Source: Bacteroidales bacterium
Lineage (GTDB): Bacteria; Bacteroidota; Bacteroidia; Bacteroidales; JAADGE01
Length of the DNA stretch: 64,000 nucleotides
Assembly: GCA_021108035.1 (NCBI GenBank)
Contig: JAIORQ010000097.1
Location: 7,692-71,691, forward strand
Reading direction: 5' to 3'
The notes below the pieces were generated by a model. That model made no database searches and was not told the DNA's origin. It saw only the letters and a program-made list of their open reading frames with translations. The position numbers were made by a program, and so were the translations under genes. Below, piece by piece: positions 3,535 through 62,781 of the stretch (position 1 is the stretch's first letter; the number at the start of each line of letters is the position of its first letter).

Positions 3535-4245
3535 ATGAAAAAATTAGCATTATTAATTACAGTATCAGCAATATTTATTACAAGCTGCAAAAATGAAGAA
3601 AAAATTAATTTAAACAATTTCAATGATTCTTTGAGCTACGCAATAGGAAATGATATTGCCGGCAGTTTTAAACAAAGTAAATTAGACAGTTTAGACATTG
3701 ACATTTTAGCAAAAGCAATTAAAGATAATTTTGCAGAAGATTCAAGTGTTATGAGTAACGAAGCCATTAGTCAAATCTTAATGACCTTTTCGCAAAAGAT
3801 GAGAGCTGAAGCTGAAGCTGAAAGAATTGAACAAAATAAAATTCAATTCAAAGACAATTTAGAAACCGGACAAAAATTCTTGGAAGAAAACTCAAAAAAA
3901 GAAGGAGTTATAACTACCGAAAGCGGTCTGCAATATAAAATTATTAAAAAAGGAAAAGGGGAATCGCCTAAATTCACTGATAAAGTTAAAGTTCATTACG
4001 AAGGAACTTTACTTGACGGAACAAAATTTGACAGCTCTTATGACAAAGGTGAACCGGCAGAATTTGGTGTAACACAAGTAATTAAAGGCTGGACAGAGGC
4101 TTTACAATTAATGAAAAAAGGCAGCGAATGGGAATTATACATTCCTTATGATTTAGCATACGGCGACAGAGGAAGCGGCAGTATTAAACCGTTCAGTGCT
4201 CTTATTTTTAAAGTTGAATTAATATCAATTATTGAAACAAAATAA
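3535..4245 (+). CDS. FKBP-type peptidyl-prolyl isomerase lipoprotein (paralog of the upstream gene)
   Basis: Lipobox ITSC. FKBP core: VKVHYEGTLLDGTKFDSSYDKGEPAEFGVTQVIKGWTEALQLM. Confidence 0.9.
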   Translation: MKKLALLITVSAIFITSCKNEEKINLNNFNDSLSYAIGNDIAGSFKQSKLDSLDIDILAKAIKDNFAEDSSVMSNEAISQILMTFSQKMRAEAEAERIEQNKIQFKDNLETGQKFLEENSKKEGVITTESGLQYKIIKKGKGESPKFTDKVKVHYEGTLLDGTKFDSSYDKGEPAEFGVTQVIKGWTEALQLMKKGSEWELYIPYDLAYGDRGSGSIKPFSALIFKVELISIIETK

Positions 4246-6007: not shown

Positions 6008-7567
6008 ATGAAAACCAAGCTTTATTTAATAACTTTTATTTTAGTTGCATTAGTAGTGATTGGATTCGGTTATGCCGGTATGACGCTGTCACTCAATTAT
6101 ATGCAAAAAAAATATATTGAGCTTCAATTAGATATCAATAAGAGGCAAGCTGAAAACATGGCTGTCTTTCTTGAAAATCAAATAGCAAAAGGTGCATCAA
6201 AAAAAGATGTCAGAGAAAATCTTCAATCAGCATTATCAGGTACAGATGCCGACAAAGGGTTCTTATGTATGTTCGACAAATATGATGCTGAAATGATTTG
6301 CCATCCTGATGAAAATATGCTCGGAATGAAACTTCCTGCAAGTATGGAATTTGAAGACACTCAAAACGGAGAGATAAATAAAACTCGAAATATTATATTG
6401 GAAGGATTAGCAACCGGCGGATTGTTCCATAAAGAATCCGGAACTGATATTGCTTATATGGTTCCGGTAAAAGGTACGGGATGGATGATTTCGGCTCATG
6501 AGAATATTGATAATATCAAATCAGAAATTAACAGCCAAAAGGAGATATTTTTATTAGGATTCGCCATTATCAGTATTCTGACTGCAATATTGGCAACTTT
6601 AATGGCCCGTCTTGCAGGAAGAAGATATGAGAAAAAGATTGAAGAACAAAATATCTTACTTGAAAATACAAATGAAGAATTAAAAACAACTAACAATCAG
6701 TTGAATCAGAAAAATAAAGAAATTAGTCTTCAAAAAACAATTATTGAAGATCAACATAATTTTGTAAAGAAACAAAAAGATCAGATTGAAGAACAAAGTG
6801 AACAAATAACGTCAAGTATTCAATATGCAAGCAGAATTCAAAAAGCTTTACTTCCGCCTGAAAATCTTTTTTCCGAAGTTTTTAAAGATTCATTCGTATT
6901 TTACAAACCTCGTGATATAGTCAGCGGCGATTTTTATTGGTTAAAGAAAATAAATAATACAGTTATTTTTGCAGCAGCAGATTCTACAGGACACGGAGTA
7001 CCCGGTGCATTTATGAGTATGTTGGGAATTGCATTTTTAAATGAAATCGTTAGTGAAGATACTCATGATTTTACTTCATGTTCATCATCAATGATTTTAG
7101 ATGATTTAAGAGACCGAATTAAAAATTCATTAAGACAAACCGGAGAAGATGATCAAACCAAAGACGGAATGGATATGGCCTTAGTTATGTTAGATACAAA
7201 TACAAATACTATACAATTTTCGGGAGCATATAATCCGCTGTATATTGTTCGTAATAAGAAATTAACTGAAGTACAAGCTGACAGAATGCCTGTTGGTGTA
7301 TATCTGAAAGACAGTGAACCATTTTCAAATAAAAGAGCTCAACTTCACGAAGGCGATGTTTTATATTTATTCTCTGACGGTTTCTACGATCAATTCGGAG
7401 GAGAATCAGGCAGAAAATTTATGAAAAATAAATTCCGTGAATTAATTGAAGAAATTTCTGACAAAGCTATGAACGAACAAAAACAAATTCTTGAAAATAC
7501 ATTTAATGAATGGAAAGGAGATTATGAACAAGCTGATGATGTATTGGTTGCAGGGATAAAGATTTAG
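6008..7567 (+). CDS. Membrane sensor PP2C/SpoIIE-family protein phosphatase (Cache-like periplasmic domain, TM, coiled coil, PP2C)
   Basis: Two TM segments flank a Cache-like domain, followed by a long coiled coil. SpoIIE motifs: SGDFYW, DSTGHGVPGAFMSMLG, DGMDMAL, LFSDGFYDQFGG, DDVLVAGIKI. Confidence 0.85.
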   Translation: MKTKLYLITFILVALVVIGFGYAGMTLSLNYMQKKYIELQLDINKRQAENMAVFLENQIAKGASKKDVRENLQSALSGTDADKGFLCMFDKYDAEMICHPDENMLGMKLPASMEFEDTQNGEINKTRNIILEGLATGGLFHKESGTDIAYMVPVKGTGWMISAHENIDNIKSEINSQKEIFLLGFAIISILTAILATLMARLAGRRYEKKIEEQNILLENTNEELKTTNNQLNQKNKEISLQKTIIEDQHNFVKKQKDQIEEQSEQITSSIQYASRIQKALLPPENLFSEVFKDSFVFYKPRDIVSGDFYWLKKINNTVIFAAADSTGHGVPGAFMSMLGIAFLNEIVSEDTHDFTSCSSSMILDDLRDRIKNSLRQTGEDDQTKDGMDMALVMLDTNTNTIQFSGAYNPLYIVRNKKLTEVQADRMPVGVYLKDSEPFSNKRAQLHEGDVLYLFSDGFYDQFGGESGRKFMKNKFRELIEEISDKAMNEQKQILENTFNEWKGDYEQADDVLVAGIKI

Positions 7568-11753: not shown

Positions 11754-13046
11754 TTACACAAGAAACTCTACGACAGCATTTCCGGTTGAATTAATTCCGG
11801 TAATCTTTAAATCTATAATTTCATTGATTAATTCTTTGTTATAAGGAACTTCAACCTTAATGTAGTTTTTAGTAAAACCATACATAGAATTCTTATGCTT
11901 TCCTCCTTCAAACAAAACTTTATGTTCTGAATTAACGAAACGTTTATAAAATGCTTTATGCTTAATATCAGACAATTGATGCAGTTGTTCACTTCTCTTT
12001 TTTATGATATTTCCCGGAACTTTGTCCGGCAAGTGTTCCGCCGGTGTTCCCGGACGAACAGAATATGAAAACACATGTAAAAAAGAAATATTCAGACTTT
12101 CTAAAAAATTATAAGAATCTATAAAATCTTCTTCCGTCTCACCCGGAAAACCTACAATTACATCAATACCCAGAAAGGCATTCGGTATTAATTGATTTAT
12201 TCTTTTAATCTTTTGATGAAACAATGAAGTATTGTAACGCCGTTTCATCAATTTCAAGATTTTATCACTTCCGGATTGTACGGGGATGTGAAAATGCGGT
12301 AAAAATTTCTTGGATTGAACTGTAAATTCAAGAATTTCATCGCTTATTAAATTCGGTTCAATTGAAGATATTCTGTAACGTTCTATTCCTTCAACTTTTT
12401 CCAAAGCTTTTATCAAATCAAAAAATGATTCACCGGTTCCCTTTCCGAAATCACCAATATTAACTCCTGTAAGAATAACTTCTTTAAATCCTTCACTTGC
12501 AATTTTATCGGCTTGCTTAACCGTTTTTTTAACAGTATCACTCCTACTCTTCCCTCTCACACTCGGTATTATACAGTAAGTACACGGATAATCACAACCG
12601 TCTTGCACTTTTAAAAAAGAACGAGTTCTGTCACCTGACGAAAATGCGGCATCAAACCTATTGATCTTATTTGTTTCACAAGAATATACAACTGCATTTT
12701 TCTTTTTTTCTAATGATTTAACATATTTGAAAAAATTGAATTTCTCATTATTACCCAGAACAACATCAACTCCCGGCATCTTTGCAATGTTATCAGCTTC
12801 GTCTTGGGCATAACAACCTGTAACAGCTATAAATGCGTTCGGAGAAATTTTCTTGGCTTTTTTAATGGCTTGTCTGCATTTTTTAACAGCTGTTCCTGTA
12901 ACGGTGCAAGTGTTAATAAGCACAACGTCAGATTTTTCACCAAATTTCACTCTTTCAAAACCTTTTTTCACAAAATCTCTTGCAATTGCAGATGTTTCTG
13001 AAAAATTTAATTTGCAACCAAGTGTATGGAATGAGACTTTTTTCAT
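11754..13046 (-). CDS. mtaB: tRNA (t6A37) methylthiotransferase MtaB (radical SAM)
   Basis: N-terminus MKKVSFHTLGCKLNFSET. Radical-SAM motif CDYPCTYC. C-terminal TRAM-like region. 430 aa. Confidence 0.85.
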   Translation of the reverse strand: MKKVSFHTLGCKLNFSETSAIARDFVKKGFERVKFGEKSDVVLINTCTVTGTAVKKCRQAIKKAKKISPNAFIAVTGCYAQDEADNIAKMPGVDVVLGNNEKFNFFKYVKSLEKKKNAVVYSCETNKINRFDAAFSSGDRTRSFLKVQDGCDYPCTYCIIPSVRGKSRSDTVKKTVKQADKIASEGFKEVILTGVNIGDFGKGTGESFFDLIKALEKVEGIERYRISSIEPNLISDEILEFTVQSKKFLPHFHIPVQSGSDKILKLMKRRYNTSLFHQKIKRINQLIPNAFLGIDVIVGFPGETEEDFIDSYNFLESLNISFLHVFSYSVRPGTPAEHLPDKVPGNIIKKRSEQLHQLSDIKHKAFYKRFVNSEHKVLFEGGKHKNSMYGFTKNYIKVEVPYNKELINEIIDLKITGINSTGNAVVEFLV

Positions 13047-13183
13047 TAAAAAAAATATTCTACAAAATTATTAAAATTTCTTTACAAAAATATACTTGTA
13101 TTTTACATCAAGTAAATCATACACGGAATTGTTAAAAACTAAATAAATAAAGGGTTCAAGACAGCATGATATTTGCAGTTTAC

Positions 13184-13453
13184 TTAAGGCAACCTCTAAT
13201 AATTAAATTGCATCAAGATTTTCAGAGTTTATCACAGACGATGTAAATTTTAGAAGCAATATCGGGATAATGCAAGAAAATTTGAAGAAGTATATGACAA
13301 ACTCTGAAAACCTTTCGGGAACAAATATAATAAACAATCTGACTGCGTTAAATTTTTTTGCAATAACAACGGCTATTCCAAAAAAATTATGCCTTGCATC
13401 TTGTTCATTATATTTGTTTCTTGAAAGAAATTAATTATTAGAGGTTGCCTTAA
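13184..13453. promoter_or_regulatory. 270-bp element bounded by perfect 23-bp inverted repeats (candidate invertible promoter or MITE)
   Basis: TTAAGGCAACCTCTAATAATTAA at 13184-13206 has its exact reverse complement at 13431-13453. A nested 12-bp IR lies at 13219-13230/13299-13310. TATATTTG (matches TAnnTTTG) at 13409-13416 faces the gene at 13466. Confidence 0.6.
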
Positions 13454-13465
13454 AAACGACCTACA

Positions 13466-13879
13466 ATGAAATTATTAAAAACTTTATTACTGATTACGAT
13501 AATTTTTATCTTTTCAGGCTGCTACTTTTTGGATTATGTTATTCCGGAGGAATATTTTGCAGATGAAGAAATAATTCAATATGATTATACTATTATTGAC
13601 AGGTCTCCTGTAATTAACACAGAATATGTTTGGATATCACACACATCCGGAATACAGGGAGGTATAAGCTATTTCTCATCATTAAACAGTGCGGTTAATT
13701 CATTAAGAAGACTTGGTATAACTGTTTACGATTCACAAATTACTCACGGTCCACAAAAACAAGCGATTGGAACTGCCAGCGGAATGCGATACAGTGCAAA
13801 AATTAAAAGTAAAGATATTGATATTGTGTATAACAGCAAGTGGTTTATTTCTCGAAAATTGAATAAAGTAATTGATTGA
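13466..13879 (+). CDS. Lipoprotein, paralog 1 of an uncharacterised CYFLDYVIPEEY family
   Basis: Signal peptide and lipobox (FSGC), then the invariant YFLDYVIPEEYF. Shared motifs: VWISH, FSSL, YDS. Confidence 0.7.
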   Translation: MKLLKTLLLITIIFIFSGCYFLDYVIPEEYFADEEIIQYDYTIIDRSPVINTEYVWISHTSGIQGGISYFSSLNSAVNSLRRLGITVYDSQITHGPQKQAIGTASGMRYSAKIKSKDIDIVYNSKWFISRKLNKVID

Positions 13880-13890
13880 AAGAAGATACA

Positions 13891-14295
13891 ATGAAAACCT
13901 TAAAAATTTTATCCTTAATTTTAATATCATCTGTTTTTTCAAGTTGTTATTTTTTAGATTATGTTATTCCGGAGGAATATATTGTCACTGATGATTATTA
14001 TTTTGAAGCAGAAGATTATTATGGCTATAATCCACAATTTATTTGGATTAGTCACCCTGTAGGAATTCAATGCAGAAACAATTTTTTCAGTTCTTTAGAA
14101 GAAGCCGAGAGATATTTAAATAATAATGAAATTTTTACTTACGATTCATATAAAAAGATTAGTTCACAAAGAAAAAAATGCGGGTTTCCGACAGAATTAA
14201 GATATTATTTTGAAATTATGAATTATGATGTAAGCAAAGCAATTTCACTGGGTTGGTCATCTCCATACAGAAGAAATGATAACAGAGCTTATTAA
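13891..14295 (+). CDS. Lipoprotein, paralog 2 of the CYFLDYVIPEEY family
   Basis: ATG at 13891 (MKTLKILSL...FSSCYFLDYVIPEEY). The ORF-track start at 13876 is a TTG and overlaps the gene 1 stop. Confidence 0.7.
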   Translation: MKTLKILSLILISSVFSSCYFLDYVIPEEYIVTDDYYFEAEDYYGYNPQFIWISHPVGIQCRNNFFSSLEEAERYLNNNEIFTYDSYKKISSQRKKCGFPTELRYYFEIMNYDVSKAISLGWSSPYRRNDNRAY

Positions 14296-14404
14296 ACAAC
14301 TTATCATCATAACCTTATTTTTAGAAACTGAATTTCATAAATAAAGATATTTAATCAAGAATAATAACTCAAGGATAGAAAAATAATAATATAAAAATCA
14401 AGCC

Positions 14405-14782
14405 GTGAAAACTATTAAACTTTTAATTTCAGCATTGATTATAACTTTTTTTTCATCTTGTTATTTTTTGGATTATGTTATTCCGGAGGAATATTTTGCT
14501 GATGACGGCTACAAAATTGAAGATCGATCAAGTTATGTTTGGATTTCCCATCCGGCAGATGTTGAATGTGAAGGGATGTTTTTTCACTCTTTGCAAGGAG
14601 CTGAAAATTATTTAAAAAACAGAGGTATCAGGATATATGATTCTTACGAAAAACACAATGCTTTTAAAACCAAATACAGTAATCCGTATTCATTAATTTA
14701 TTATGTTAAGATTCATAGAAATGTATTAGATTTAGCACATAGATATGGTTGGGCAAAACGTGCATCTGTTGTATCATATTAA
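14405..14782 (+). CDS. Lipoprotein, paralog 3 of the CYFLDYVIPEEY family
   Basis: GTG start. MKTIKLL...FSSCYFLDYVIPEEYFADD. Shares the VWISHP...FF-SL...YL...I-x-YDSY pattern. Confidence 0.65.
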   Translation: MKTIKLLISALIITFFSSCYFLDYVIPEEYFADDGYKIEDRSSYVWISHPADVECEGMFFHSLQGAENYLKNRGIRIYDSYEKHNAFKTKYSNPYSLIYYVKIHRNVLDLAHRYGWAKRASVVSY

Positions 14783-21261: not shown

Positions 21262-21975
21262 TTAATACCTCCACTCCACATGGCTAAAAGGAAGTCGATT
21301 TAATTCTTCTCTGTGGAATCTCCATTTGGGCATAAATTTGTCCATGTATTTTATGAATGTATCGTTATGAGTTCGTTCTAACAAGTGTACTAATTCGTGA
21401 ACGATTATGTATTCCAAACATTCAACAGGTTTTCTTGCAAGTTCAAGGTTTAGCCAAATTCTTTTTGCTTCGATATTACAAGAACCCCATTTTGTTCGCA
21501 TTTTTTTTATTCCGAAATCATTGGTTTTAACTCCGATTACTTTTTCCCACTTTTTAATCATTTCCGGAATTATCTTTTTTAATTCTGCCCGATACCAATC
21601 ATCTAAAACCTGTTTTTTCTTTTCGGTGTTTGTGTTAGGGCGAATATACAATTCAATTTCTTTGTGTTTTAATACAACTTTCGGACTTGAATCTTGCTCT
21701 ATAATTTTCATCAGATAGCTTTCTCCTCTGAAATAGTGAGTTTCTCTTGTGAGATATTCCCTCGGAGTTTCTCGGTTTTGATTTCTTAAGTGTTCTTGTT
21801 GCTTTTTTATCCAACTTAATTTTGAAATTGCAAACACTCGTATTGTATCTAAATCCATTCTGTGAGGTGCAGAAATTTTAACCTTTCCCACAGGCGGATA
21901 AACACTCAAATGAATATTTTTAATATCCTTTTGCTCTACATCAATTATTATTTTTCCTAATTCAATAGTCTGCAT
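21262..21975 (-). CDS. DUF45/YgjP-like (M48-type) zinc metallopeptidase, R-M associated
   Basis: HELVHLLERTHN zinc motif. Overlaps the hsdR stop by 1 nt. This is the usual companion gene of type I hsdR. Confidence 0.8.
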   Translation of the reverse strand: MQTIELGKIIIDVEQKDIKNIHLSVYPPVGKVKISAPHRMDLDTIRVFAISKLSWIKKQQEHLRNQNRETPREYLTRETHYFRGESYLMKIIEQDSSPKVVLKHKEIELYIRPNTNTEKKKQVLDDWYRAELKKIIPEMIKKWEKVIGVKTNDFGIKKMRTKWGSCNIEAKRIWLNLELARKPVECLEYIIVHELVHLLERTHNDTFIKYMDKFMPKWRFHREELNRLPFSHVEWRY

Positions 21976-24900
21976 TAGTATTCCTTTTGCTCACGAATAA
22001 TTTTAAAAATTCGCTCTGTTTCTTCTATATCATTCAATATTTTATAGACAGCTGATTTAATTTCTTGTTCTTTGGGTTTATTTCCTCTCCAACCGTCTCT
22101 TTTTGAAACTTTAACAGCTGCATCAATTTGTATTGCAAGATTTGTATCTTTATTTAAGTTATTATACAGAGCTTTTTGTGCAAAATTTTTGATGATACTC
22201 GGAGTATCATCTGTTTGTCCTTTATTTACTGACTTAACAATCTCTTCTATTTTTTTAAGATATTCTTCATAGCTTACTGCATTTGCTTTTCGTTCTTTAA
22301 TAACTTCCCCCAGTAGTTTTGACATATTCTCAAAGAAAGCCGGGTCAATAAGATGTTCTTTAATAATTTTTCTTCTTACATTATTCTCAATAGTTTCTGC
22401 AACTGCACTTTTATTTGATTTAATTCCGGGTGTCAATCCTTCAATAAAATTATTAATTCCGGTTTTTTCTATTATTTCTAATAAAGATACATCATCAAAA
22501 TGAGATATTTTTTGCGTTTCTTCGGCTTTAATATATGTATCAATTAAATGACGCATATCTGCTTCATAAGTTTTTAAATTTGTTGTTTCTCCGCTTGCAT
22601 TCCGAATTTCTGCTCTTAAATTCAAATAGAAATCAATATCCTTTTTAATATTTCCGATTTCATGCGGACTGTAAATTTCTTCAATTTCATCAGCTATATT
22701 AGCATAGGCACGAATTAAGGAAACAGTTTTTTTATACAATGCTGTTCTTTGTGTTTCTCTCGCTTTTAATTCTTCCGGAATTTCCGTATTTCCGCAGAAA
22801 TAACGAATATATGCCAATGTATCTTTCGGCGGTTCTACCTTCTCACAAAGCAAAGATATTTCTTCAAGTGCATTATCAAGTCTTGCTTTTCCGGCTTCTA
22901 AACGGTCTTTCAGTAATATATCAATATCTTGTTTCTCAAAATTATCATAATCTAAATCCGAAGTATAAACTGCAATTGCATTTTCTACACTTGAAAATAA
23001 ATCCATATAATCTACGATGTAACCGTATTCTTTATCATCTCCGTCAAGGCGGTTTACTCGACAAATTGCCTGAAACAAACCGTGATCTTGCATTTTTTTA
23101 TCAATGTATAGATAGGTACAACTCGGGGCATCAAAACCTGTAAGAAGTTTGGCAACTACAATCAACAATTTCATATTTGCCGGTTCTTTTGTAAACTTTT
23201 GCTTTGCCCAATCTTCGTATGTTTCTGATTTAGATTTACCGGGATGTGCTTTTACATCTTTTAAAATATCTTCATATAAATTATAGATAAATTCTTTTTG
23301 AGTTTCAGTATTTGCTCCTGTATCCTCCTTTGTAATATCTTTACTTGCCGGGTTATAAGATGTTACTATTGCACATCGGTTTTTAAATTCCGTATTTTGA
23401 AATCTGTCATAAAAAACAGATGCTTCATAAATTGATTTTGCTATCAAAATTGCATTCCCTTTTTCAGAACTTATTCTTGGTTTTGTGCCGAAATCAAAAA
23501 TAATATCACTAATAATCCTATCTATACGAGAACGACTGCTTAATACCTTTTGCATAGTCCCCCACTTCTTTTTAAGTACGGATTTTTGATAATCATTTAA
23601 GCCTTTGGTTTTAGCATCAAACCATTGGTCTATTTTAAAGTCTGACCTTAATTTTTGGTCAATATCTCTTGCTTCATACAGTAAGTCCAAAATTACATCG
23701 TCTTCAACTCCTTCATTAAATTTATAGGTATGAATATATTTTCCGAAAACTTCTAAACTGGTTTGTTTGTCTTGTTTTAATAAAGGTGTTCCCGTGAAAC
23801 CGATAAAAACAGCATTGGGAAGCATCGCTTTCATTGTTTGGTGTAATTTACCGCTTTGAGTTCTGTGGCACTCATCTACAAAAATAAAAAGGTCACCGAC
23901 TGCTTTTGACGGCTGACTTTTTAACTCACTTATAAATTTGCTGAAATTTGTAACATCTCTTTTTCCGAATTTGTGAACCAAAGAACAAATTAACCTTGGA
24001 GTTGTTTGCTCCAATTTTCGCATTAAATCTCTTCCGCTGTTTGTTCGATATATTTTTTCATCGGCATCTTTAAATACGCCTTCAATTTGTTTATCTAACT
24101 CATCACGGTCGGTTATTACGGCAACTCTTGCATTGGGATTATTCTCTAAAATCCATTTTGCAAGCATTACCATTACAATACTTTTTCCGCTGCCTTGTGT
24201 ATGCCAAATAATACCGCCCTCGTAACGATTAACATATTTTTGAGCTTCTTTTAAACCAAAATATTGATGTACTCTCGGAAGTTTCTTTACTCCTGCATCA
24301 AAAAGAACAAAATCAAAAATAATTTCAAGAAAACGTTCTTTATCACACATTTTCAAAATATATTTATCCGATAACAAACGACTTGTATCTTCAACATTTT
24401 CTTTCCATTTTAAAAAATACTTTTCGGGTGTTTTTATTGTACCATAACGCACACCTTCGGAATCATTTGCTGCAAAAATATATTGTATGGCGGCAAAAAA
24501 CGGCTGAATATAATCTTCTCTTTGGTTTGTAATACTTTGGCGAATACCTTCTCCTATGTCATTAATGCTTCTTTTTAATTCCAAAACAGCAAGTGCAATT
24601 CCGTTTACATATAAAACAATATCGGGTCTTTTTGTGTTTTCGCCTTTAATGGTAACTTCTTCTGCAATTGCAAAATCATTATCTTTAAAGTTTTTCCAAT
24701 CAATAAGATGAACAGTTTCGGTGTTTTTGCCTGCTTCGGGTTTTACTTTTACGCCGTAACGCAACAATTGATATACATTTTTATTTGTTGTGTAAAGATT
24801 GTCATTAAAGTTTATTGCCGTAGTTTTAAAATCGTAAATTGCTTTATTGATAAGCTGTTGTGAATATCCTTTTCTTTGGAGAAATGCCGACAATAATTCT

Positions 24901-25025
24901 TCCTCAATATTGCTGTTATTTTCTCTGTCTTGCCAATCACCAAGATATTTGTAGCCTAACTCATCTTGAAATAACTTTACAATTCGATTTTGGGTTTTGC
25001 GTTCTACTTGACCGGGTTTGTCCAT
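21975..25025 (-). CDS. hsdR: Type I restriction endonuclease subunit R
   Basis: 1016 aa. N-terminal nuclease region. Helicase motif I is HTQGSGKS and motif II is VDECHRTQ. The C-terminal helical domain is typical of HsdR. Confidence 0.9.
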   Translation of the reverse strand: MDKPGQVERKTQNRIVKLFQDELGYKYLGDWQDRENNSNIEEELLSAFLQRKGYSQQLINKAIYDFKTTAINFNDNLYTTNKNVYQLLRYGVKVKPEAGKNTETVHLIDWKNFKDNDFAIAEEVTIKGENTKRPDIVLYVNGIALAVLELKRSINDIGEGIRQSITNQREDYIQPFFAAIQYIFAANDSEGVRYGTIKTPEKYFLKWKENVEDTSRLLSDKYILKMCDKERFLEIIFDFVLFDAGVKKLPRVHQYFGLKEAQKYVNRYEGGIIWHTQGSGKSIVMVMLAKWILENNPNARVAVITDRDELDKQIEGVFKDADEKIYRTNSGRDLMRKLEQTTPRLICSLVHKFGKRDVTNFSKFISELKSQPSKAVGDLFIFVDECHRTQSGKLHQTMKAMLPNAVFIGFTGTPLLKQDKQTSLEVFGKYIHTYKFNEGVEDDVILDLLYEARDIDQKLRSDFKIDQWFDAKTKGLNDYQKSVLKKKWGTMQKVLSSRSRIDRIISDIIFDFGTKPRISSEKGNAILIAKSIYEASVFYDRFQNTEFKNRCAIVTSYNPASKDITKEDTGANTETQKEFIYNLYEDILKDVKAHPGKSKSETYEDWAKQKFTKEPANMKLLIVVAKLLTGFDAPSCTYLYIDKKMQDHGLFQAICRVNRLDGDDKEYGYIVDYMDLFSSVENAIAVYTSDLDYDNFEKQDIDILLKDRLEAGKARLDNALEEISLLCEKVEPPKDTLAYIRYFCGNTEIPEELKARETQRTALYKKTVSLIRAYANIADEIEEIYSPHEIGNIKKDIDFYLNLRAEIRNASGETTNLKTYEADMRHLIDTYIKAEETQKISHFDDVSLLEIIEKTGINNFIEGLTPGIKSNKSAVAETIENNVRRKIIKEHLIDPAFFENMSKLLGEVIKERKANAVSYEEYLKKIEEIVKSVNKGQTDDTPSIIKNFAQKALYNNLNKDTNLAIQIDAAVKVSKRDGWRGNKPKEQEIKSAVYKILNDIEETERIFKIIREQKEY

Positions 25026-25115
25026 TTGGATTTATTCTTTTGAGTTTCCTTTTAATTGTTCTTTTAAGTTTCTTTCTTTACATGAGCGGTATATATCTAT
25101 TGTTCCCGTTTTTAA

Positions 25116-26129
25116 TTATTGTTTCGGAAACAGTTTTTTTATTTCCTTATCAAAATCACTTTCAAATAAACTGTCTTGAATTATTCTGTATTTTTCAAAT
25201 TCTGTTTCTGCTTTTTCTTTTGCTATTTGGGCTGATATTTTTCCTGCATCTTGTAGTATTGCTCTGTCGTCATATTCTAAAAATAAGTCAAGTCTTTTTG
25301 CCCAATCTTGCATAGTCATAGGAATTTTACGCTTTGCACGTCCTTCGGCTAAATCCAAATAGGCATTAACAATACGTCCGAGAGCTTCAATTTCGTCTTT
25401 TATAAGATAGTTTTTAGCAATTGATACATCTGTTTTTATTATTTTACCGTCGGGGGAGTTTTTCCAAGATGTTAATCCCATTTTTTCTTTTGTGCTGTCA
25501 GCTCTTTTATGAATCAGTCCGGCTGCTGTGTGTCCGTGTATGCCGAAATGGAGTTTGTTTTGCACTTTTGCAAAAAACTCCTTTGTGGTAACAGCATCTT
25601 TATTGTAATCTAAACTTGTAGCATAAATATCGGTTACTTTTTGATAAAATTTACGTTCACTTAATCTAATTTCTCTTATTTCGGAAAGTAATTCTTCAAA
25701 GTAATTTTCGTTTAAAAAAGTTCCGTTTTCAAGTCGTTTTTTATCAATTACAAAGCCTTTAATTGCAAAATTACTCAAAACCTTTGTTGCCCATTGCCTG
25801 AATTGTGTTGCACGCAACGAATTTACACGATAACCTACCGAAATAATTGCATCAAGATTATAAAAATTTGTATTATAATTTTTGCCGTCATCGGCAGTTA
25901 TTCGAAATTTTCGAATAACTGAATTATCATCAGCTTCACCACTTTTAAAAATTTCTTTAAGATGATAATTTACTGTATTAGTGCCTACCTCAAAAAGTTC
26001 TCCCATAAGTTTTTGAGTGAGCCAAATTGTTTCATCTTCGTAGCGGGCTTCTATACTGTTTTTCCCGTCTTGCGAAGTAAATATTAAAAACTCTGCCGTG
26101 CTGTTTCTTATTTGTTTATTTTTTTTCAT
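25116..26129 (-). CDS. rhuM: RhuM-family protein
   Basis: N-terminus NSTAEFLIFTSQDGKNSIEARYEDETIWLTQKLMGELF and ISVGYRVNS...ATQFRQWAT are typical of RhuM. Overlaps the hsdS stop by 4 nt. Confidence 0.8.
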   Translation of the reverse strand: MKKNKQIRNSTAEFLIFTSQDGKNSIEARYEDETIWLTQKLMGELFEVGTNTVNYHLKEIFKSGEADDNSVIRKFRITADDGKNYNTNFYNLDAIISVGYRVNSLRATQFRQWATKVLSNFAIKGFVIDKKRLENGTFLNENYFEELLSEIREIRLSERKFYQKVTDIYATSLDYNKDAVTTKEFFAKVQNKLHFGIHGHTAAGLIHKRADSTKEKMGLTSWKNSPDGKIIKTDVSIAKNYLIKDEIEALGRIVNAYLDLAEGRAKRKIPMTMQDWAKRLDLFLEYDDRAILQDAGKISAQIAKEKAETEFEKYRIIQDSLFESDFDKEIKKLFPKQ

Positions 26130-27376
26130 AGCAAACGTATTTTCCCCGTTAATAACACCTGCATCATTCCCTGTTTTATTTGCCGGTATTTTGTTGTTTT
26201 CTTTTCTAATGCTTCTATTTCTAAATCCATATCGGAAAGGATTTGAGCGATAAGGGTTTGTTCGTTTAATGTAGGTAAGGGGATTTTCAATTGAGCATAT
26301 TCATTTCCATTAATTCCTGGTTGTCCACTTCTCATTGACATTATTTTCACCCAATTCCAATATTTTGTAGATTGTGTAAAATACTTTAAATATTTTGAAT
26401 TTAATTTTTTAGGATTTGGGCTTACTTTAATAAGGAAACCTGCATAAACTAACAATCCATCATTTTTATTGTATAGATAGGTTTTGCCAACACTTGCACC
26501 AGTTCTTGCAAAAACAATTTCGTTTTCTTTTAAATAGAAATCATTACTATTAGTTGCATCAACAGATGCTTTATTTTCATAAATAAAATTTCCATCTTCA
26601 GAAATATCTGTAATTCTTAAATATGTTGGTAAATTTAAATTGTATGACACAGCAGCGGCATTTATTCCGTAAGTTGGTCTATCAAACAAACAATTACCCA
26701 AAGTCCTAAGCTCCCAACCCTCTTTCGGAGTAAGCAATTTTTGCATTGCTCCTTGTTTTATTTTGCGTTTTTTGGCAATTAGTTTTTCAAGGGCTTGTAT
26801 TAATTTATCGGTATCGGACAGGACTTGGGCTATGGCTTTTTGTTCTGGGAGTGGTGGGAGGGGGATTTGGATATTTGCTAATTGTGAAGCACTAATATGA
26901 ACAACAGCATCTCCTTGTCCTTTGCTCGCCTTTTGTTTTTGAACAGTTTTATCATTTAATAAAAATCCTAAAAAAAGTGAATTTACTTTATTTGGTGATA
27001 ATATTACAATATCTCCACCAGCATATGCTTCTACATCTTTTGTATATGCAATACTTTTTCCAATCTCTGATTTTGTTTCACCTGAACCAGCAAACAATAT
27101 ATCTCCAATTTTAAGTTTTTTTGAAGTTAGAGCCACTTCATCTGATATGTAAGAATAAAATTCTTTGATATAATCGTAATGTTTTGTGTATATTTCTCCA
27201 TATCTGACACAAGGTATATAACCACTATTTGATTGGTCTTTTCTTATTCCTTGCCCTTTTGTAAAATTCCCAATACTTCCTAAATTTTTCACCTCCCAAT
27301 CCTCCGGAATAATTCCGATTTCAGTTTGTTTATATCCCTTTAATAAGTTTAGGGTATCAGTTTTTTTTACTTCCAT
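26126..27376 (-). CDS. hsdS: Type I R-M specificity subunit S (two target-recognition domains)
   Basis: Two TRDs are separated by conserved helices: LPPLPEQKAIAQVLSDTDKLIQALEKLIAKKRKIKQGAMQKLLT and LPTLNEQTLIAQILSDMDLEIEALEKK...KQGMMQVLLTGKIRL. Confidence 0.9.
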   Translation of the reverse strand: MEVKKTDTLNLLKGYKQTEIGIIPEDWEVKNLGSIGNFTKGQGIRKDQSNSGYIPCVRYGEIYTKHYDYIKEFYSYISDEVALTSKKLKIGDILFAGSGETKSEIGKSIAYTKDVEAYAGGDIVILSPNKVNSLFLGFLLNDKTVQKQKASKGQGDAVVHISASQLANIQIPLPPLPEQKAIAQVLSDTDKLIQALEKLIAKKRKIKQGAMQKLLTPKEGWELRTLGNCLFDRPTYGINAAAVSYNLNLPTYLRITDISEDGNFIYENKASVDATNSNDFYLKENEIVFARTGASVGKTYLYNKNDGLLVYAGFLIKVSPNPKKLNSKYLKYFTQSTKYWNWVKIMSMRSGQPGINGNEYAQLKIPLPTLNEQTLIAQILSDMDLEIEALEKKTTKYRQIKQGMMQVLLTGKIRLL

Positions 27377-28386
27377 GTCGTTTTGTTAATTTTCTTCTGC
27401 AATTCAGTTAAATTTTTTATTAAATTATCAAAAGACAGGGTTTTACCGTAAATCATGTTTTCTTGCATTTCTTTATAATCATCTTCCCAAAGATGTAATA
27501 CATTATCGGGAGGTATAAATTTTATATTATCCGGTTTTTGCTTTGTGTAATCAACACCCGAAACACGAGCAAATTTACTGCGATGTGCTACGATGGTATT
27601 ATACAAAACAGAATTATTTAATGCCGTTTCTGCAAAGTTTGTATGCATTAATTTTTCAATATCGTACAAATGACGGCTTAAACGTTCTACACGCATTTTT
27701 TCTTTCGGTCGTTGAAATTCTTCGTGTAAAAGGAATATTTTTTCTAAAAAAGTGCGTTCGGGATTTACGGTCGGTACAGTAATCGGTTTATCGGCAAACT
27801 TTCGGTCGGCAAAATATTCTGCCGTAAAAGTTTTAAATGTTTTTGCAGTATATGGTTCTTTCAAAGAACGGCTTCCTACTTCTAATAACACACCGGGTTT
27901 TAAATATGTTTCCGTTTCTGTTAATTTAGGATAATAAATTTCTATTATTACAGGGTCTTGGTCATGGTTTTTTACTTTTCGGTATTTAATATTAACATCT
28001 GAAAAACCGGCATCCGAAAATTTGTTTTTAAGTTCTTCAATAAATGTTGTTGTCATATATTCAAAAGATGTTCTTCTTAATCTCCGAATGTCTCCTTTGC
28101 TTAATTCACCTTTAAAACCGAGATATTCTCTGTTTAGAGCTAAATCAATATCTTCCGAAAAGCGTTCTATTAAATTCCATGCTTTGCTTAAAGATGTTCC
28201 GCCTTTAAAAACTAATTCGGAAGCACATTTCATTGAAAAGACAATTGCCAAAGTATTTACTACCCACCAATCTTTTTCAACAGCTGTAACAGGCAAGCCC
28301 ACTTTTTTGCCTGTTTCAACATAGATGTTACGTTTTGTATCATCAGGCAATTGTAACCACTCTTTTAAATGTTCCGGTTTATTCAT
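27367..28386 (-). CDS. abiEii: AbiEii/AbiGii-family nucleotidyltransferase toxin (type IV TA)
   Basis: FKGGTSLSKAWNLIERFSEDIDL motif. 339 aa. Overlaps abiEi by 8 nt and hsdS by 10 nt. Confidence 0.85.
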   Translation of the reverse strand: MNKPEHLKEWLQLPDDTKRNIYVETGKKVGLPVTAVEKDWWVVNTLAIVFSMKCASELVFKGGTSLSKAWNLIERFSEDIDLALNREYLGFKGELSKGDIRRLRRTSFEYMTTTFIEELKNKFSDAGFSDVNIKYRKVKNHDQDPVIIEIYYPKLTETETYLKPGVLLEVGSRSLKEPYTAKTFKTFTAEYFADRKFADKPITVPTVNPERTFLEKIFLLHEEFQRPKEKMRVERLSRHLYDIEKLMHTNFAETALNNSVLYNTIVAHRSKFARVSGVDYTKQKPDNIKFIPPDNVLHLWEDDYKEMQENMIYGKTLSFDNLIKNLTELQKKINKTTWK

Positions 28387-28984
28387 TTGATTTATCTGTA
28401 TTAAGCAGTTTCCTTATCCAATGCGGAGCTATATTCAAATCATGTTGTAAATGATACGGTTTTTCATTTTTCAGCAAGCCTCTTATCTTTTTCAATTCTT
28501 CGTCTGTAACATTATTTTTACCTATATTACGTAAAGCCTGAACTGCCAATTTGCTGATATTACCGATGTATGCAAGATTTTTTGCACTTGCTTTTTTAAA
28601 GGTTATGATTTGATTGTCTATTTTTATTTTACGTGCAGAAGCATCTGTATAATACACAATATTCATAGGCACTTGCGTTGTAAGTCCCAATTTATACATT
28701 GCATAACTTCCGGTAGGAATAATACGAGCTTTGTCTCTTTTTGCAATCGCAAGAGCAATCTCATCAATACCGGGCAATACAATTCCGATATATTTATCTA
28801 TTTTCGGTCTTGCATACATCCCTCTTGCTACTCTGTATATCTCTTTCGATTTAACCAGTCGTTCCAATGCCTTACTAACGGCTTTTGTATCACCTGTTGA
28901 TGCAAAACTGTCTGTAAAAAACAGCGTGCCCCTCTTGGCTTTTTTAATTTTATTAAACACCTTTATTTCAACACTATCACTCAT
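28379..28984 (-). CDS. abiEi: AbiEi-family antitoxin/transcriptional regulator
   Basis: MSDSVEIKVF...RGTLFFTDSF...AVSKALERLVKSKEIYRVARGMYARPK is typical of the AbiEi/DUF6088 N-terminal wHTH. The start was chosen at the internal Met; the ORF track extends to 29017. Confidence 0.75.
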   Translation of the reverse strand: MSDSVEIKVFNKIKKAKRGTLFFTDSFASTGDTKAVSKALERLVKSKEIYRVARGMYARPKIDKYIGIVLPGIDEIALAIAKRDKARIIPTGSYAMYKLGLTTQVPMNIVYYTDASARKIKIDNQIITFKKASAKNLAYIGNISKLAVQALRNIGKNNVTDEELKKIRGLLKNEKPYHLQHDLNIAPHWIRKLLNTDKSNE

Positions 28985-29038
28985 ATAAATACTATATATT
29001 TGTCGCAAATATAGCAAATATATGCGACATAATTTATT

Positions 29039-32649: not shown

Positions 32650-33546
32650 TTATGATTTCAGACGATCTGTGTTTTTATATCTTGCATTTTCTGATTTGTA
32701 AAACTTATATAAAAGATAATAAATTACAAATTCATTTTGTCTTGGTTTTACAATAAATATTCTGTTAAGCATCATATGGGATTGGCTTATTATAAATTTA
32801 TTAATAGGAACATCCTGTTTATTTTTTGCATTTAATTCTAATATTGAACTAATAATATCTTTAGTGTTTTCACTTTTTAACAATATTAGATTATAAAGTG
32901 AATTCAAATATTTAAGACCTTTCTTTTTGTCAGATAACAGTGAATTTAGAATTGGCCTCAAACTTCTAAACTTCATGTCTAACTGTTTTTTAAATTGTTT
33001 GTTCATAGAAAATTCATAGTCGAAATTTTTTACCAATTCTTCAAACATCAGAGATTTACTGTTTGAAGAAAGGCCAAAATCGCTGAAAAAATTATCTACA
33101 GCCATTATTGCAAACCTCCATCTTAATTCTTCACTGTCTTTTCCTCTTATTAGATTTGCCGTTTCAGAAACCATAATACTGTCATAATAAAAAAGAGTTT
33201 CCGCTTCTTCAATCGTAATTTTGCCGTATCTTTCAATCTCACGCTTATATGTGTCAATTTGAACCGAGAAAATAATTAAATCCTCAAAATATTCACTCAA
33301 ATATTCTTTCATTAATTTTATTACTTCATAAAATAATTCATTATTTATTTGAAATCTTATTCTTAAATGAAACTGAGGATCATGATATCTGATAAAAAAC
33401 CATTTATTAATAATCCCTTTAGCTGTAAGCTCTTTGGTCATCGGCAGGATTATTTTTATTAATATTTCTTCAGCAATTTTCTTACCGGTGTATATTTTAT
33501 AAAATAACCATTCCTCTCCAATCAAAAAGTTTCTTTTGAGCGTCAT
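32650..33546 (-). CDS. Split LanB, elimination-domain protein (SpaB_C / thiopeptide-type bacteriocin biosynthesis domain)
   Basis: 298 aa. WFFIRYHDPQFHLRIRF matches the hallmark FF-x-RY-x-D...HLRLR motif of LanB C-terminal/TIGR03891 proteins. Begins 6 nt downstream of the glutamylation-domain gene. Confidence 0.8.
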   Translation of the reverse strand: MTLKRNFLIGEEWLFYKIYTGKKIAEEILIKIILPMTKELTAKGIINKWFFIRYHDPQFHLRIRFQINNELFYEVIKLMKEYLSEYFEDLIIFSVQIDTYKREIERYGKITIEEAETLFYYDSIMVSETANLIRGKDSEELRWRFAIMAVDNFFSDFGLSSNSKSLMFEELVKNFDYEFSMNKQFKKQLDMKFRSLRPILNSLLSDKKKGLKYLNSLYNLILLKSENTKDIISSILELNAKNKQDVPINKFIISQSHMMLNRIFIVKPRQNEFVIYYLLYKFYKSENARYKNTDRLKS

Positions 33547-33552
33547 ATCTTT

Positions 33553-62553: not shown

Positions 62554-62643
<90 letters not shown>

Positions 62644-62648
62644 AGGAT

Positions 62649-62690
62649 AGATTGAAGGAATGGAATGTATTTCTTCAATCTTTTTATTTT
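62649..62690 (+). terminator. Rho-independent terminator after tRNA-Ser
   Basis: 9-bp stem AGATTGAAG/CTTCAATCT followed by TTTTATTTT. Confidence 0.65.
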
Positions 62691-62781
62691 TAGGGCGTTA
62701 GGTTTTTCCCGGTTTAATTATTTCAATTTTTCGGCAAAATGTTTCACTTATGTTTCACTTAACATTTGAACATTTTGTCTT

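Follow-up and report, generated by a model that had tools for sequence, protein, structure and literature searches.

A probable IS5-type MITE inserted at a TTAA before a lipoprotein gene in a Bacteroidales bacterium

The window analysed here, that is, the whole stretch of 64,000 nucleotides, very probably carries a 262-bp non-coding MITE of the IS5 type, inserted at a TTAA 12 bases before the gene that opens a small lipoprotein array (Table 1). The first-pass annotation had favoured another reading, an ON-oriented invertible promoter, and had named a TTAA-ended MITE and a structured RNA as alternatives; it is the MITE that dispersed copies with 4-bp direct duplications and empty orthologous sites bear out.

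Table 1. Positions of the element, its parts and the neighbouring features in the window
Feature	Position	Strand	Evidence or remark
mtaB (tRNA methylthiotransferase)	11754-13046	-	divergent, upstream; TIGR01579 437.6 bits (cutoff 357); Pfam UPF0004 and Radical_SAM
Near-consensus -7 box GATATTTG, likely native lipoprotein promoter	13168-13175	+	conservation in orthologous loci
Left TSD copy, TTAA, 4 bp	13184-13187		single TTAA in empty sites L018, L019 and L020
Element proper (non-autonomous IS5-family MITE, very probable), 262 bp	13188-13449		recurrence at unrelated loci, empty sites, no credible coding capacity
Left TIR, 19 bp, GGCAACCTCTAATAATTAA	13188-13206	+	perfect complement of 13431-13449
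Hairpin H1, imperfect palindrome	13219-13310		base formed by 12-bp nested repeat; repeat search and folding; retained in L017 derivative
Hairpin H2, arms 13320-13358 and 13380-13418	13320-13424		105-bp block, missing from L017 derivative
Candidate box, mirror-image TATATTTG, H2 left arm	13322-13329	-	faces H1 and mtaB
Candidate box TATATTTG, matching the Bacteroidota -7 consensus TAnnTTTG	13409-13416	+	faces lipoprotein gene, 49 nt before ATG
Right TIR, 19 bp	13431-13449	-	pairs with left TIR
Right TSD copy, TTAA	13450-13453		empty-site comparison; direct 4-mers at other copies
Small lipoprotein gene 1 of three-gene paralogous array	13466-13879	+	directly downstream of insertion
Small lipoprotein-like paralogues 2 and 3	13891-14295, 14405-14782		lipobox and following motif shared with gene 1

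The element and its empty orthologous sites

The exact 23-bp inverted repeat reported earlier, TTAAGGCAACCTCTAATAATTAA at 13184-13206 and 13431-13453, was confirmed by a sequence check, and it resolves into the 19-bp TIR and a 4-bp TTAA target-site duplication; the repeat looks 23 bp long because the duplication adjoins the TIR on each side. The TIRs are perfect over 19 bp and continue imperfectly to about 31 bp, and the inverted-repeat pair, with the duplication included, can be followed for 35 nt with a complementarity of 89%. Only two sites in the window match the 23-mer with three or fewer mismatches, and none was found in 100 dinucleotide-preserving shuffles. The internal 54-aa ORF (13270-13434) has no Pfam match, and its apparent homologues are simply further copies of the element. 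A covariance-model scan of the whole window at the Rfam gathering thresholds gave no match in the element region; at E values up to 10, positions 12900-13700 gave chance miRNA and snoRNA matches of 12-20 bits against cutoffs of 43-100. A terminator scan found none.

The flanking genes are as previously described, with MtaB upstream and divergent, lipoprotein-like ORFs downstream and the first ATG at 13466, 12 nt past the right repeat. The mtaB start codon lies 137 nt from the insertion site, and an exact-protein lookup of MtaB returned no record. In all three lipoprotein-like ORFs the lipobox cysteine is followed by YFLDYVIPEEY. The first of them has no Pfam or NCBIfam match, counts just 11 homologues among 5.8 billion proteins and is hypervariable between strains. 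Upstream of the insertion, the box at 13168-13175 is likely to act as the native promoter of this gene, to judge from its conservation: all five orthologous loci, with or without the insertion, keep it as GAWATTTG, and in the empty sites it is located 24 nt upstream of the ATG. The insertion, which adds 266 bp, splits this conserved promoter-like box from the start codon.

Three orthologous mtaB-lipoprotein loci (L018, L019 and L020) are without the element and have a single TTAA, in the context ...ATTTGCAGTTTAC-TTAA-AAAYGACCTACAATG. At the identical point the window and the sister lineage L017 read TTAA-element-TTAA. The spacer between mtaB and the lipoprotein gene measures 153 bp in the empty loci L019 and L020 and 419 bp in the window, and 419 minus 266 is 153, so that the element and one duplication account exactly for the difference between empty and filled orthologues. 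Over the neighbouring 530 nt of mtaB, filled and empty loci are 93-95% identical; therefore, the insertion is a presence/absence polymorphism among close relatives. The form found in L017 is a 165-bp derivative that lacks H2 and retains H1, the former probably lost through slippage at an AA microhomology, and the lipoprotein ORF beyond it is intact. Special purifying selection on the spacer and the element had been suspected from their 96% identity, against 70% at the third codon positions of mtaB. This idea was rejected because mtaB is a mosaic, whose 3' half shows 71-88% identity and whose 5' part shows 90-96%, and the comparable 5' segment is 93-95% identical across filled and empty lineages.

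Dispersed copies and IS5-family partners

A search for further copies and for their target duplications had been proposed earlier, dispersed copies being the result that would speak against an invertible segment, and such copies were found in related assemblies. They are 83-99% identical to the element and lie at unrelated loci (L002, L005, L007, L011, L012, L015, L026, L027 and L031). Three contigs of the MAG Chlorobiota bacterium CSMAG_422 (L002, L005, L007) hold copies that are 92-99% identical to the element, with the repeat cut off by the contig end in two cases, and three contigs of metagenome Ga0255390 (L011, L012, L015) hold copies at 92-97% identity together with a mini-element. A diverged subfamily, at 83-85% identity, occupies three further loci and shows the same five changes in both TIR arms. 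The copies are intergenic and their flanking sequences are unrelated to one another. Four copies are flanked by the direct repeat TTAA/TTAA, L011 by ATAA/ATAA and the L009 mini-element by TTAT/TTAT; the 4-mers are one base off in two further copies and do not match in L011mini and L031/L032. The mini-elements, of 60-118 bp, share the element's termini. Most copies are situated 12-210 nt upstream of a gene start, and they face the downstream gene in either orientation. A terminal 20-mer also matches a Rhodospirillaceae single-cell assembly (L006), a metagenome contig (L008) and a Spirochaetes MAG (L003), with no paired end or transposase in the sequence examined around these matches.

The termini connect the element to IS5-family insertion sequences. 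In L004, GGCAACCTCTAATAATTAA is found 84 nt before a partial transposase ORF, and the element matches that IS end at 19 of 19 positions; the ORF scores 198.9 bits on NF033581 (IS5 family, cutoff 140) and contains DUF772 and DDE_Tnp_1. A full-length transposase, P0020, reaches 287 bits on the same model (cutoff 140). Full-length IS copies are present in L021, L022, L023 and L025, with termini agreeing with those of the element at 17 of 19 positions, and in L024, whose ends are more diverged. Two of them, L021 (1282 bp) and L024 (1273 bp), stand between TTAA and TTAA; L025 is flanked by AACA/TACA, and the 4-mers around L022 and L023, on short metagenomic contigs, do not match. The IS5 group, IS5 itself included, comprises elements of about 1.2 kb that duplicate a 4-bp YTAR target (ISfinder descriptions). 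The partner ISs, of 1.27-1.28 kb and with a 356-aa IS5-family DDE transposase, resemble this group in size, in the single DDE transposase, in termini starting with GG and in the 4-bp TTAA duplications of L021 and L024. The window element differs in being without a transposase, and what it has in common with the partner ISs are the termini alone, of roughly 19 bp; no similarity between them was seen beyond these terminal 19-20 bp. Descent from the partner IS by internal deletion is unsupported, the likeness ending at the termini. The window and its 83-kb contig show a single copy of the element, and no IS5-family transposase was seen in the 64-kb window; hence the multi-copy status and the resident partner are shown solely in related assemblies.

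These observations suggest how the insertion may have arisen. A cognate IS5-family DDE transposase, supplied in trans, would bind the shared termini and mobilise an element that lacks its own transposase gene, and a staggered cut at a TTAA target would leave the 4-bp TTAA duplication. The landing site is the leader of the first lipoprotein gene, between the native promoter-like box and the start codon. The lipoprotein genes are presumably still expressed, either by read-through from the native promoter with a long structured leader or, alternatively, from the element's own outward-facing TATATTTG box.

Internal hairpins, promoter-like boxes and alternative readings

The interior of the element is occupied by two hairpins. 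The nested 12-bp repeat noticed in the first pass, TTTTCAGAGTTT at 13219-13230 and AAACTCTGAAAA at 13299-13310, is present and forms the base of H1. H2, which was absent from that list, has arms of 39 nt each that are 74% complementary. Folding of the region yields -88 kcal/mol (z = -9.8) for the plus strand and -101.5 kcal/mol (z = -14.4) for the minus strand. As RNA, the minus strand has the more stable fold in 7 of 9 copies, an asymmetry too weak to show selection at the RNA level. Across 10 aligned copies, both-sided changes affect 17 base pairs, against 9.8 +/- 1.6 in shuffles (none of 500 reaching 17) and 1-6 pairs in slid controls; seven of the 17 pairs belong to the termini and ten are internal (three in H1, seven in H2). 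Comparison of the copies thus indicates that the two internal hairpins and the termini are maintained by compensatory changes. At the bases of both H2 arms the 10 aligned copies do not vary, the invariant internal blocks are 25-28 nt long, and between subfamilies the internal blocks are conserved equally well or better than the termini. Such conservation is not what one expects of a purely selfish MITE, and the cargo may have a function. An integron attC site or an IS200/IS605-type end had been considered as the source of the hairpins; both ideas were dropped because a DDE IS5-family partner and a 4-bp duplication were found.

The box TATATTTG at 13409-13416, described earlier as a TAnnTTTG match pointing to the lipoprotein gene, stands as a sequence, and, as both arms of H2 contain it, it recurs on the minus strand. 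Both boxes are invariant in 10 of 10 aligned copies. No -33 TTTG was found at the expected distance from the box at 13409-13416, and TAnnTTTG is not enriched in the window, with 112 sites against 111.9 expected by chance; at this frequency the box alone is no evidence for a promoter. A sigma-70 promoter scan gave 6 sites against 4.2 expected, which is uninformative, this being the wrong promoter type for the phylum.

According to the reading that was favoured earlier, a site-specific recombinase would flip the 224-bp segment and so switch the lipoprotein array between ON and OFF, in the manner of the capsule and fimbrial loci of Bacteroides. The size of the segment and the length of the repeats are typical of invertons, the TAnnTTTG box is directed at the lipoprotein gene, and the downstream genes are surface-type lipoproteins whose first member varies so strongly between strains. 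The occurrence of several copies would also be compatible with an inverton, given that a genome can hold more than one member of an inverton family with common repeats, as with the Mpi-controlled promoters of B. fragilis. Such a switch is nevertheless very improbable here. Orthologous loci that retain the single TTAA lack the entire unit, its repeats as well; copies bear direct, non-palindromic duplications (ATAA/ATAA, TTAT/TTAT); and IS5-family insertion sequences end in this repeat. Moreover, the TAnnTTTG motif is at chance frequency, and the lipoprotein ORF of L017 is intact behind a derivative without the box. Within the 64-kb window no recombinase lies near the element: a scan of the 50 ORFs of at least 110 aa yielded, as the sole recombinase-like gene, a split integrase (62782-63820) beside tRNA-Ser, 49 kb away. 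Only one orientation was seen in the window (L016), L001 and L017, a weak test with three assemblies, of which L016 is the window's own 83-kb contig and L001, like L016, is identical to the window and so adds no independent population information. Even slighter is the chance that the region is a stand-alone structured non-coding RNA gene, or a native cis-regulatory leader, that does not move. Its folding is exceptionally stable on both strands and its helices are backed by covariation, but it belongs to no Rfam family even at E up to 10, its outermost helix serves an IS family as terminus, and orthologous loci lack it and many unrelated ones carry it with target duplications; as an exclusive reading, the structured RNA offered in the first pass is contradicted by the empty sites and the dispersed copies.

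A different question, which concerns function and is compatible with a MITE origin, is whether the MITE has been domesticated, its hairpin cargo now regulating the lipoprotein array as an outward promoter, a structured 5' leader or a small RNA. We consider this unlikely, although several observations point towards it. The native -7-like box is cut off from the ATG, yet the lipoprotein ORFs are intact in both carrier lineages; the bases of the H2 arms, which bear the box, do not vary in ten copies that are otherwise 83-99% identical; compensatory changes affect ten internal pairs; most copies precede a gene start by 12-210 nt; and the minus-strand RNA fold is the more stable one in 7 of 9 copies. 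By analogy, outward promoters, experimentally shown or predicted, in BrickBuilt, the Neisseria Correia elements and MITEAba12 would make such a role plausible. However, the box has no -33 TTTG at the expected distance, and L017 keeps its insertion without H2 and therefore without the box. The copies take both orientations relative to the downstream gene, purifying selection and an AT-rich TTAA target would by themselves lead one to expect their intergenic position, and compensatory changes in a palindrome can also reflect templated repair between the arms or a requirement of transposition. A bolder proposal, and a distinctly improbable one, would see here a mobile regulatory cassette: IS5-family transposases would spread a two-hairpin cargo to promoter-proximal TTAA sites in uncultured Bacteroidota and Chlorobiota, the cargo, maintained through compensatory evolution and its invariant 25-28-nt blocks, providing divergent outward promoters and/or structured RNA and controlling, in this locus, the hypervariable lipoprotein array. 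If this were true, recombination between the 23-35-bp repeats might occasionally produce a MITE-based phase variation. Natural strains with and without the insertion before the same lipoprotein array make a direct test of its effect on expression possible.

Comparison with known systems

The invertible promoters of Bacteroides, such as those of the B. fragilis capsule that are flipped by Mpi, are repeat-flanked segments of ~200 bp upstream of surface-structure genes. The present element resembles them in having a Bacteroidota -7-type box inside a repeat-flanked segment. Invertons, however, have no target duplications, are not lacking as an exact unit at orthologous loci and have no repeats in common with ISs that bear a transposase, whereas the element shows all three features. 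A caution for inverton scans is that a MITE placed before a Bacteroidota surface-protein gene can mimic a phase-variation switch, a mimicry aided by the palindromic TTAA duplication, which lengthens the apparent inverted repeat. Comparison of empty and filled sites, together with a check of the flanking 4-mers for direct repeats, distinguishes the MITE from the inverton without reads.

Among MITEs, those of Porphyromonas gingivalis (MITEPgRS/MITE464 and BrickBuilt) have IS5-family-like termini and bidirectional promoter activity (PMC4596501). Like the present element they are found in Bacteroidota, are non-coding and strictly intergenic at tens to hundreds of nt from genes, have TIRs that match IS5-family ISs, and carry promoter elements, candidates only in our case, directed outward both ways (PMC4596501). 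Their termini begin GAGACC, against GGCAACC here, with no sequence relationship; BrickBuilt contains a 23-nt minisatellite instead of two hairpins, and its target duplications are variable or absent, in contrast to the consistent 4-bp TTAA-like ones described here (PMC4596501).

The empty/filled-site test and structured MITEs with compensatory changes have been reviewed (PMC3184786). The bcr1 element of the Bacillus cereus group is, like the present one, a mobile repeat of small size that is dispersed and makes a short direct duplication, and its predicted cruciform-like fold, with two stem-loops and compensatory changes, has the same architecture as H1 and H2 closed by the termini (PMC3184786). 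It differs in its size of about 155 bp, its 5-bp duplications, its Firmicutes hosts, the lack of an identified IS partner and its known transcription (PMC3184786). The Neisseria Correia elements, cyanobacterial Nezha and MITEAba12 share with the element IS-like termini, target duplications and stable hairpins; Nezha was validated through empty and filled orthologous sites (PMC3184786), and Correia elements and MITEAba12 carry outward promoters, either demonstrated by experiment or predicted. They differ in having other IS partners and duplications (9 bp in MITEAba12), a length of about 100-170 bp and a single hairpin. In the family described here the internal hairpins are conserved unusually well, the termini co-evolve and a deletion derivative occurs naturally. 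Together with IS5-family partners, and in uncultured lineages that have been little studied, it is an undescribed family of MITEs, of a kind that is itself already known.

Terminal repeats, dispersed copies and an IS5-family partner

The first-pass annotation had described TTAAGGCAACCTCTAATAATTAA at 13184-13206 with its exact reverse complement at 13431-13453, a nested 12-bp repeat (13219-13230 and 13299-13310), the box TATATTTG at 13409-13416 and a lipoprotein ATG 12 nt beyond the right repeat, and all of these were found as described. With up to three mismatches allowed, the 64-kb window still holds no site of the 23-bp repeat other than these two, no such pair arose in 100 dinucleotide-preserving shuffles, and the pairing extends imperfectly to 35 nt (89%). 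Flanking 4-mers were read just outside GGCAACC...GGTTGCC, with the copies put in common orientation (Table). Since non-palindromic direct 4-mers cannot belong to an inverted repeat, the window 23-mer combines a terminal repeat of 19 bp with a TTAA duplication that is palindromic, which leaves an element proper of 262 bp. Members of the IS5 group duplicate a 4-bp target of YTAR type.

Scanning the species-representative genome collection with a 20-mer of the repeat located three contigs of one MAG, Chlorobiota bacterium CSMAG_422, which carry the whole unit of ~270 bp at 92-99% identity within flanking sequences unrelated to one another. Two of the three contigs terminate inside the unit; assemblers typically break contigs at repeats. 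The metagenome collection contained three further full copies (92-97% identity, on three contigs of sample Ga0255390) and short units of 60, 104 and 118 bp with the same termini, and a spurious 54-aa ORF within the element, used as query, led to three more loci, in other Bacteroidetes assemblies, that carry a more diverged subfamily (83-85% identity). A search for copies and target duplications, of the kind proposed at first pass, returned dispersed copies in other assemblies, several of them with 4-bp direct flanks. The interior of the short units is unrelated or absent, and from the common termini with different interiors it appears that one transposase group mobilises several different MITE families.

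In a Bacteroidales MAG (L004) a transposase ORF, cut by the contig end, follows the identical 19-mer at a distance of 84 nt and has DUF772 and DDE_Tnp_1 domains. Against NCBIfam NF033581 'IS5 family transposase' (cutoff 140) this partial ORF reaches 198.9 bits, and the full-length transposase P0020 reaches 287 bits. Transposase relatives number more than 7,700, mostly of ~356 aa, and many of them are on 1.2-1.7-kb contigs, in keeping with a repeated IS. A full-length IS of 1282 bp (L021) has the termini GGTAACCTCTAAAAATTAA / ...TTTTTAGAGGTTACC, a 17/19 match to the element, and is flanked by TTAA/TTAA, as is an IS of 1273 bp with more diverged termini in a 5.9-Mb genome (L024). The IS of L025 has the termini of L021 and flanks differing by one base, and in two IS on short contigs (L022, L023) the flanking 4-mers do not match. 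No similarity between element and IS was found beyond the termini; hence the element is a MITE sharing just its ends with the IS. Its descent from the IS by internal deletion is unsupported, as the interiors share nothing.

Several loci depart from the simple arrangement. The L007 copy is longer by 37 bp at its left end, where an intact window-type terminus is followed by a degenerate second one like that of the diverged subfamily (GCGGGCTTCTATTAATTA); the end is perhaps hybrid or nested. Contigs L031 and L032 hold the same copy and right flank (a YjeF-type gene) with different left flanks and a matching 4-bp duplication in neither, so that either MITE copies have recombined and rearranged the flanks or the assembly is chimeric at the repeat. 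Exact 20-21-nt terminal-repeat matches in a Spirochaetes MAG, a Rhodospirillaceae single-cell assembly and a metagenome contig had neither paired end nor transposase in the surrounding DNA examined, and may be solo ends or chance matches. The L025 IS adjoins a second, unrelated transposase gene (DUF4372 and DDE_Tnp_1, 410 aa), perhaps a local pile-up of insertion sequences; one study series (ZHAN22-2) supplied both L025 and the orthologous locus L017.

Coordinates of features, with flanking 4-mers of element copies
Feature	Position	Left	Right	Remark
Element, window	13188-13449	TTAA	TTAA
H1	~13219-13310			imperfect hairpin
H2	arms 13320-13358, 13380-13418			imperfect hairpin
L007 copy	3646-3705 (left end)	TTAA	TTAA
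L015 copy		TTAA	TTAA
L027 copy		TTAA	TTAA
L011 copy		ATAA	ATAA
L012 copy		TTAA	TTGA
L031 copy	1415-1684	TTAA	ATAT
L032 copy	1014-1283	TTAT	ATAT
L009 mini-element	204-307	TTAT	TTAT	104 bp, IS5-type termini
L011 mini-element	325-384	TTAC	AAAA	60 bp, IS5-type termini
L014 mini-element	342-459	TATA	TTTA	118 bp, IS5-type termini
Terminal-repeat match, Spirochaetes (L003)	6893-6912
Terminal-repeat match, Rhodospirillaceae (L006)	2052-2071
Terminal-repeat match, metagenome (L008)	2973-2992
IS5-family copy, L025	69-1301
GAWATTTG box	13168-13175
Boxes in mtaB promoter region	13063-13070, 13085-13092			- strand
mtaB	11754-13046; L017 2-1279
Lipoprotein array	13466-14782; L017 1594-2010; L018 1626-1991; L019 690-2068
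56-nt repeats in array	13511-13566, 14450-14505
Type I operon	21975-31480
hsdR	21975-25025
RhuM-family gene	25116-26129			inside type I operon
hsdS	26126-27376
AbiEii/AbiEi-like toxin-antitoxin pair	27367-29017			inside type I operon
hsdM	29039-31480
Split LanB-type dehydratase	32650-35760
Lant_dehydr_C	32650-33546
Lant_dehydr_N	33553-35760
tRNA-Ser(GCT) and integrase	62554-63820
Arm-DNA-bind_5 ORF	62782-63276			part of split integrase
Phage_integrase ORF	63248-63820			part of split integrase

Filled, empty and derivative alleles

Orthologous mtaB-lipoprotein loci of four other assemblies were reached via homologues of the adjacent lipoprotein. Three of them (L018, L019, L020) read ...ATTTGCAGTTTAC-TTAA-AAAYGACCTACAATG, with a single TTAA and no element, and the spacer of L019/L020 is 153 bp, exactly 419 minus 266; in the window and L017 the element lies at the identical point, between two TTAAs. 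Within mtaB, the 530 nt next to the site show 93-95% identity throughout among the window, L017 and L019/L020, and 79% for the outgroup L018. As filled and empty orthologous loci occur at such identity, the insertion is a presence/absence polymorphism among close relatives. Filled and empty sites are the classical proof of transposition and are unexpected for a resident inversion switch.

The sister lineage L017, with the same insertion site and orientation, carries a derivative of 165 bp with 26-bp perfect repeats. It is without a 105-bp block equal to H2 (13320-13424), which every other full copy has, and shows AA microhomology at the junction; the simplest reading would be slippage loss of H2. 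The derivative is also without the TATATTTG box, and the lipoprotein ORF is intact all the same.

The first-pass preference for an ON-oriented invertible promoter serving the lipoprotein genes is not supported, given the empty orthologous sites, the dispersed copies and the IS5-type ends, and no evidence of inversion was found: the three assemblies with the locus all have it the same way round, and a scan of all 50 window ORFs of 110 aa or more gave a single recombinase, the distant split integrase beside tRNA-Ser (62782-63820), and none near the element. Flipping at low frequency, through recombination of the 23-35-bp repeats with each other, is possible. A TTAA-ended MITE, named at first pass as an alternative, is strongly supported by the 4-bp duplications, the empty sites, the dispersed copies and the IS5-family partner. 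The element represents a previously undescribed family of MITEs that occurs, with IS5-family partners, in uncultured Bacteroidota/Chlorobiota, and it is of note for its natural filled, empty and derivative alleles before a hypervariable lipoprotein array.

Flanking genes and candidate promoters

A near-consensus -7 box, GAWATTTG, is conserved in 5/5 orthologous loci, and its position in the empty sites, 24 nt before the ATG, makes it the likely native lipoprotein promoter. The element sits between this box and the ATG, and expression would proceed by read-through across 266 nt of strongly structured leader, or by a start at the outward TATATTTG of the element, 49 nt before the ATG. Other MITEs offer precedents for outward promoters (PMC4596501, PMC6382973, PMC3184786). 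The mtaB promoter region is untouched by the insertion. The TAnnTTTG box alone is uninformative, with 112 occurrences in the window against 111.9 expected, and it appears on both strands of the element because the motif falls in both H2 arms.

The divergent upstream gene is mtaB (TIGR01579, 437.6 bits against a cutoff of 357). Downstream, three paralogous ORFs (125-137 aa) each encode a signal peptide and a lipobox Cys and have the motif CYFLDYVIPEEY in common; they matched no Pfam or NCBIfam family and have only 11 homologues among 5.8 billion proteins. The array, whose lipoproteins all have a near-identical signal peptide plus that motif, thus belongs to a very small uncharacterised family. 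Its first gene is hypervariable among close relatives (the alleles of the window, L019 and L018 agree at <70% of nucleotides), and the second and third are 92-97% identical. The single lipoprotein gene of L017 joins the signal peptide of the first gene to the body of the second, which suggests recombination between repeated 5' ends; the 56-nt repeats of the window array are 89% identical. The mtaB genes of the window and L017 form a mosaic, ~71% identical at the 3' end and increasingly similar towards the 5' end (96%), beside a spacer of 97% identity, which suggests a recombination breakpoint within the gene.

The window, of 31% G+C, belongs to the 83-kb metagenomic contig ERZ26872899 NODE_34, and several of its proteins bear type IX secretion sorting domains; these features place the host in the Bacteroidota/Chlorobiota group. 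Elsewhere in it, a type I restriction-modification operon with genes embedded between its subunits is a compact defence island, a lanthipeptide dehydratase of LanB type, split in two, may mark a class I lanthipeptide or thiopeptide-like cluster, and tRNA-Ser(GCT) is directly followed by a tyrosine integrase in two overlapping ORFs, probably frameshifted and at the edge of an integrated element running off the window.

Conservation of the fold

The termini form the closing stem of a junction with two long imperfect hairpins, H1 and H2. The predicted RNA fold of the 270-nt unit reaches -88 kcal/mol (z = -9.8) on the + strand and -101.5 kcal/mol (z = -14.4) on the - strand, a stability equalled in 0/200 shuffles, and the region matched no Rfam family. 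Among 10 copies of both subfamilies, 94% of the cells in the predicted structure are paired, and 17 pairs have changes on both sides (shuffles 9.8 +/- 1.6, with 0/500 reaching 17; slid controls 1-6), seven of them in the termini and ten in H1 and H2. Both terminal arms of the diverged subfamily read GGGGACTTCTATTAATTCA, and such matching changes are expected if the two ends have to fit a single transposase. The bases of both H2 arms (GGGAACAAATATAATAAACAATCTGACT, TTCATTATATTTGTTTCTTGAAAGAAA) and of the H1 tip vary hardly or not at all. In 7/9 copies the - strand has the more stable fold, a weak hint that the element may be constrained at the RNA level.

The conserved hairpin cargo and the co-evolving termini are of note in this MITE. 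Conserved two-stem folds with compensatory changes have already been described for other bacterial mobile repeats such as bcr1 (PMC3184786); that of the element is notable, not unprecedented.
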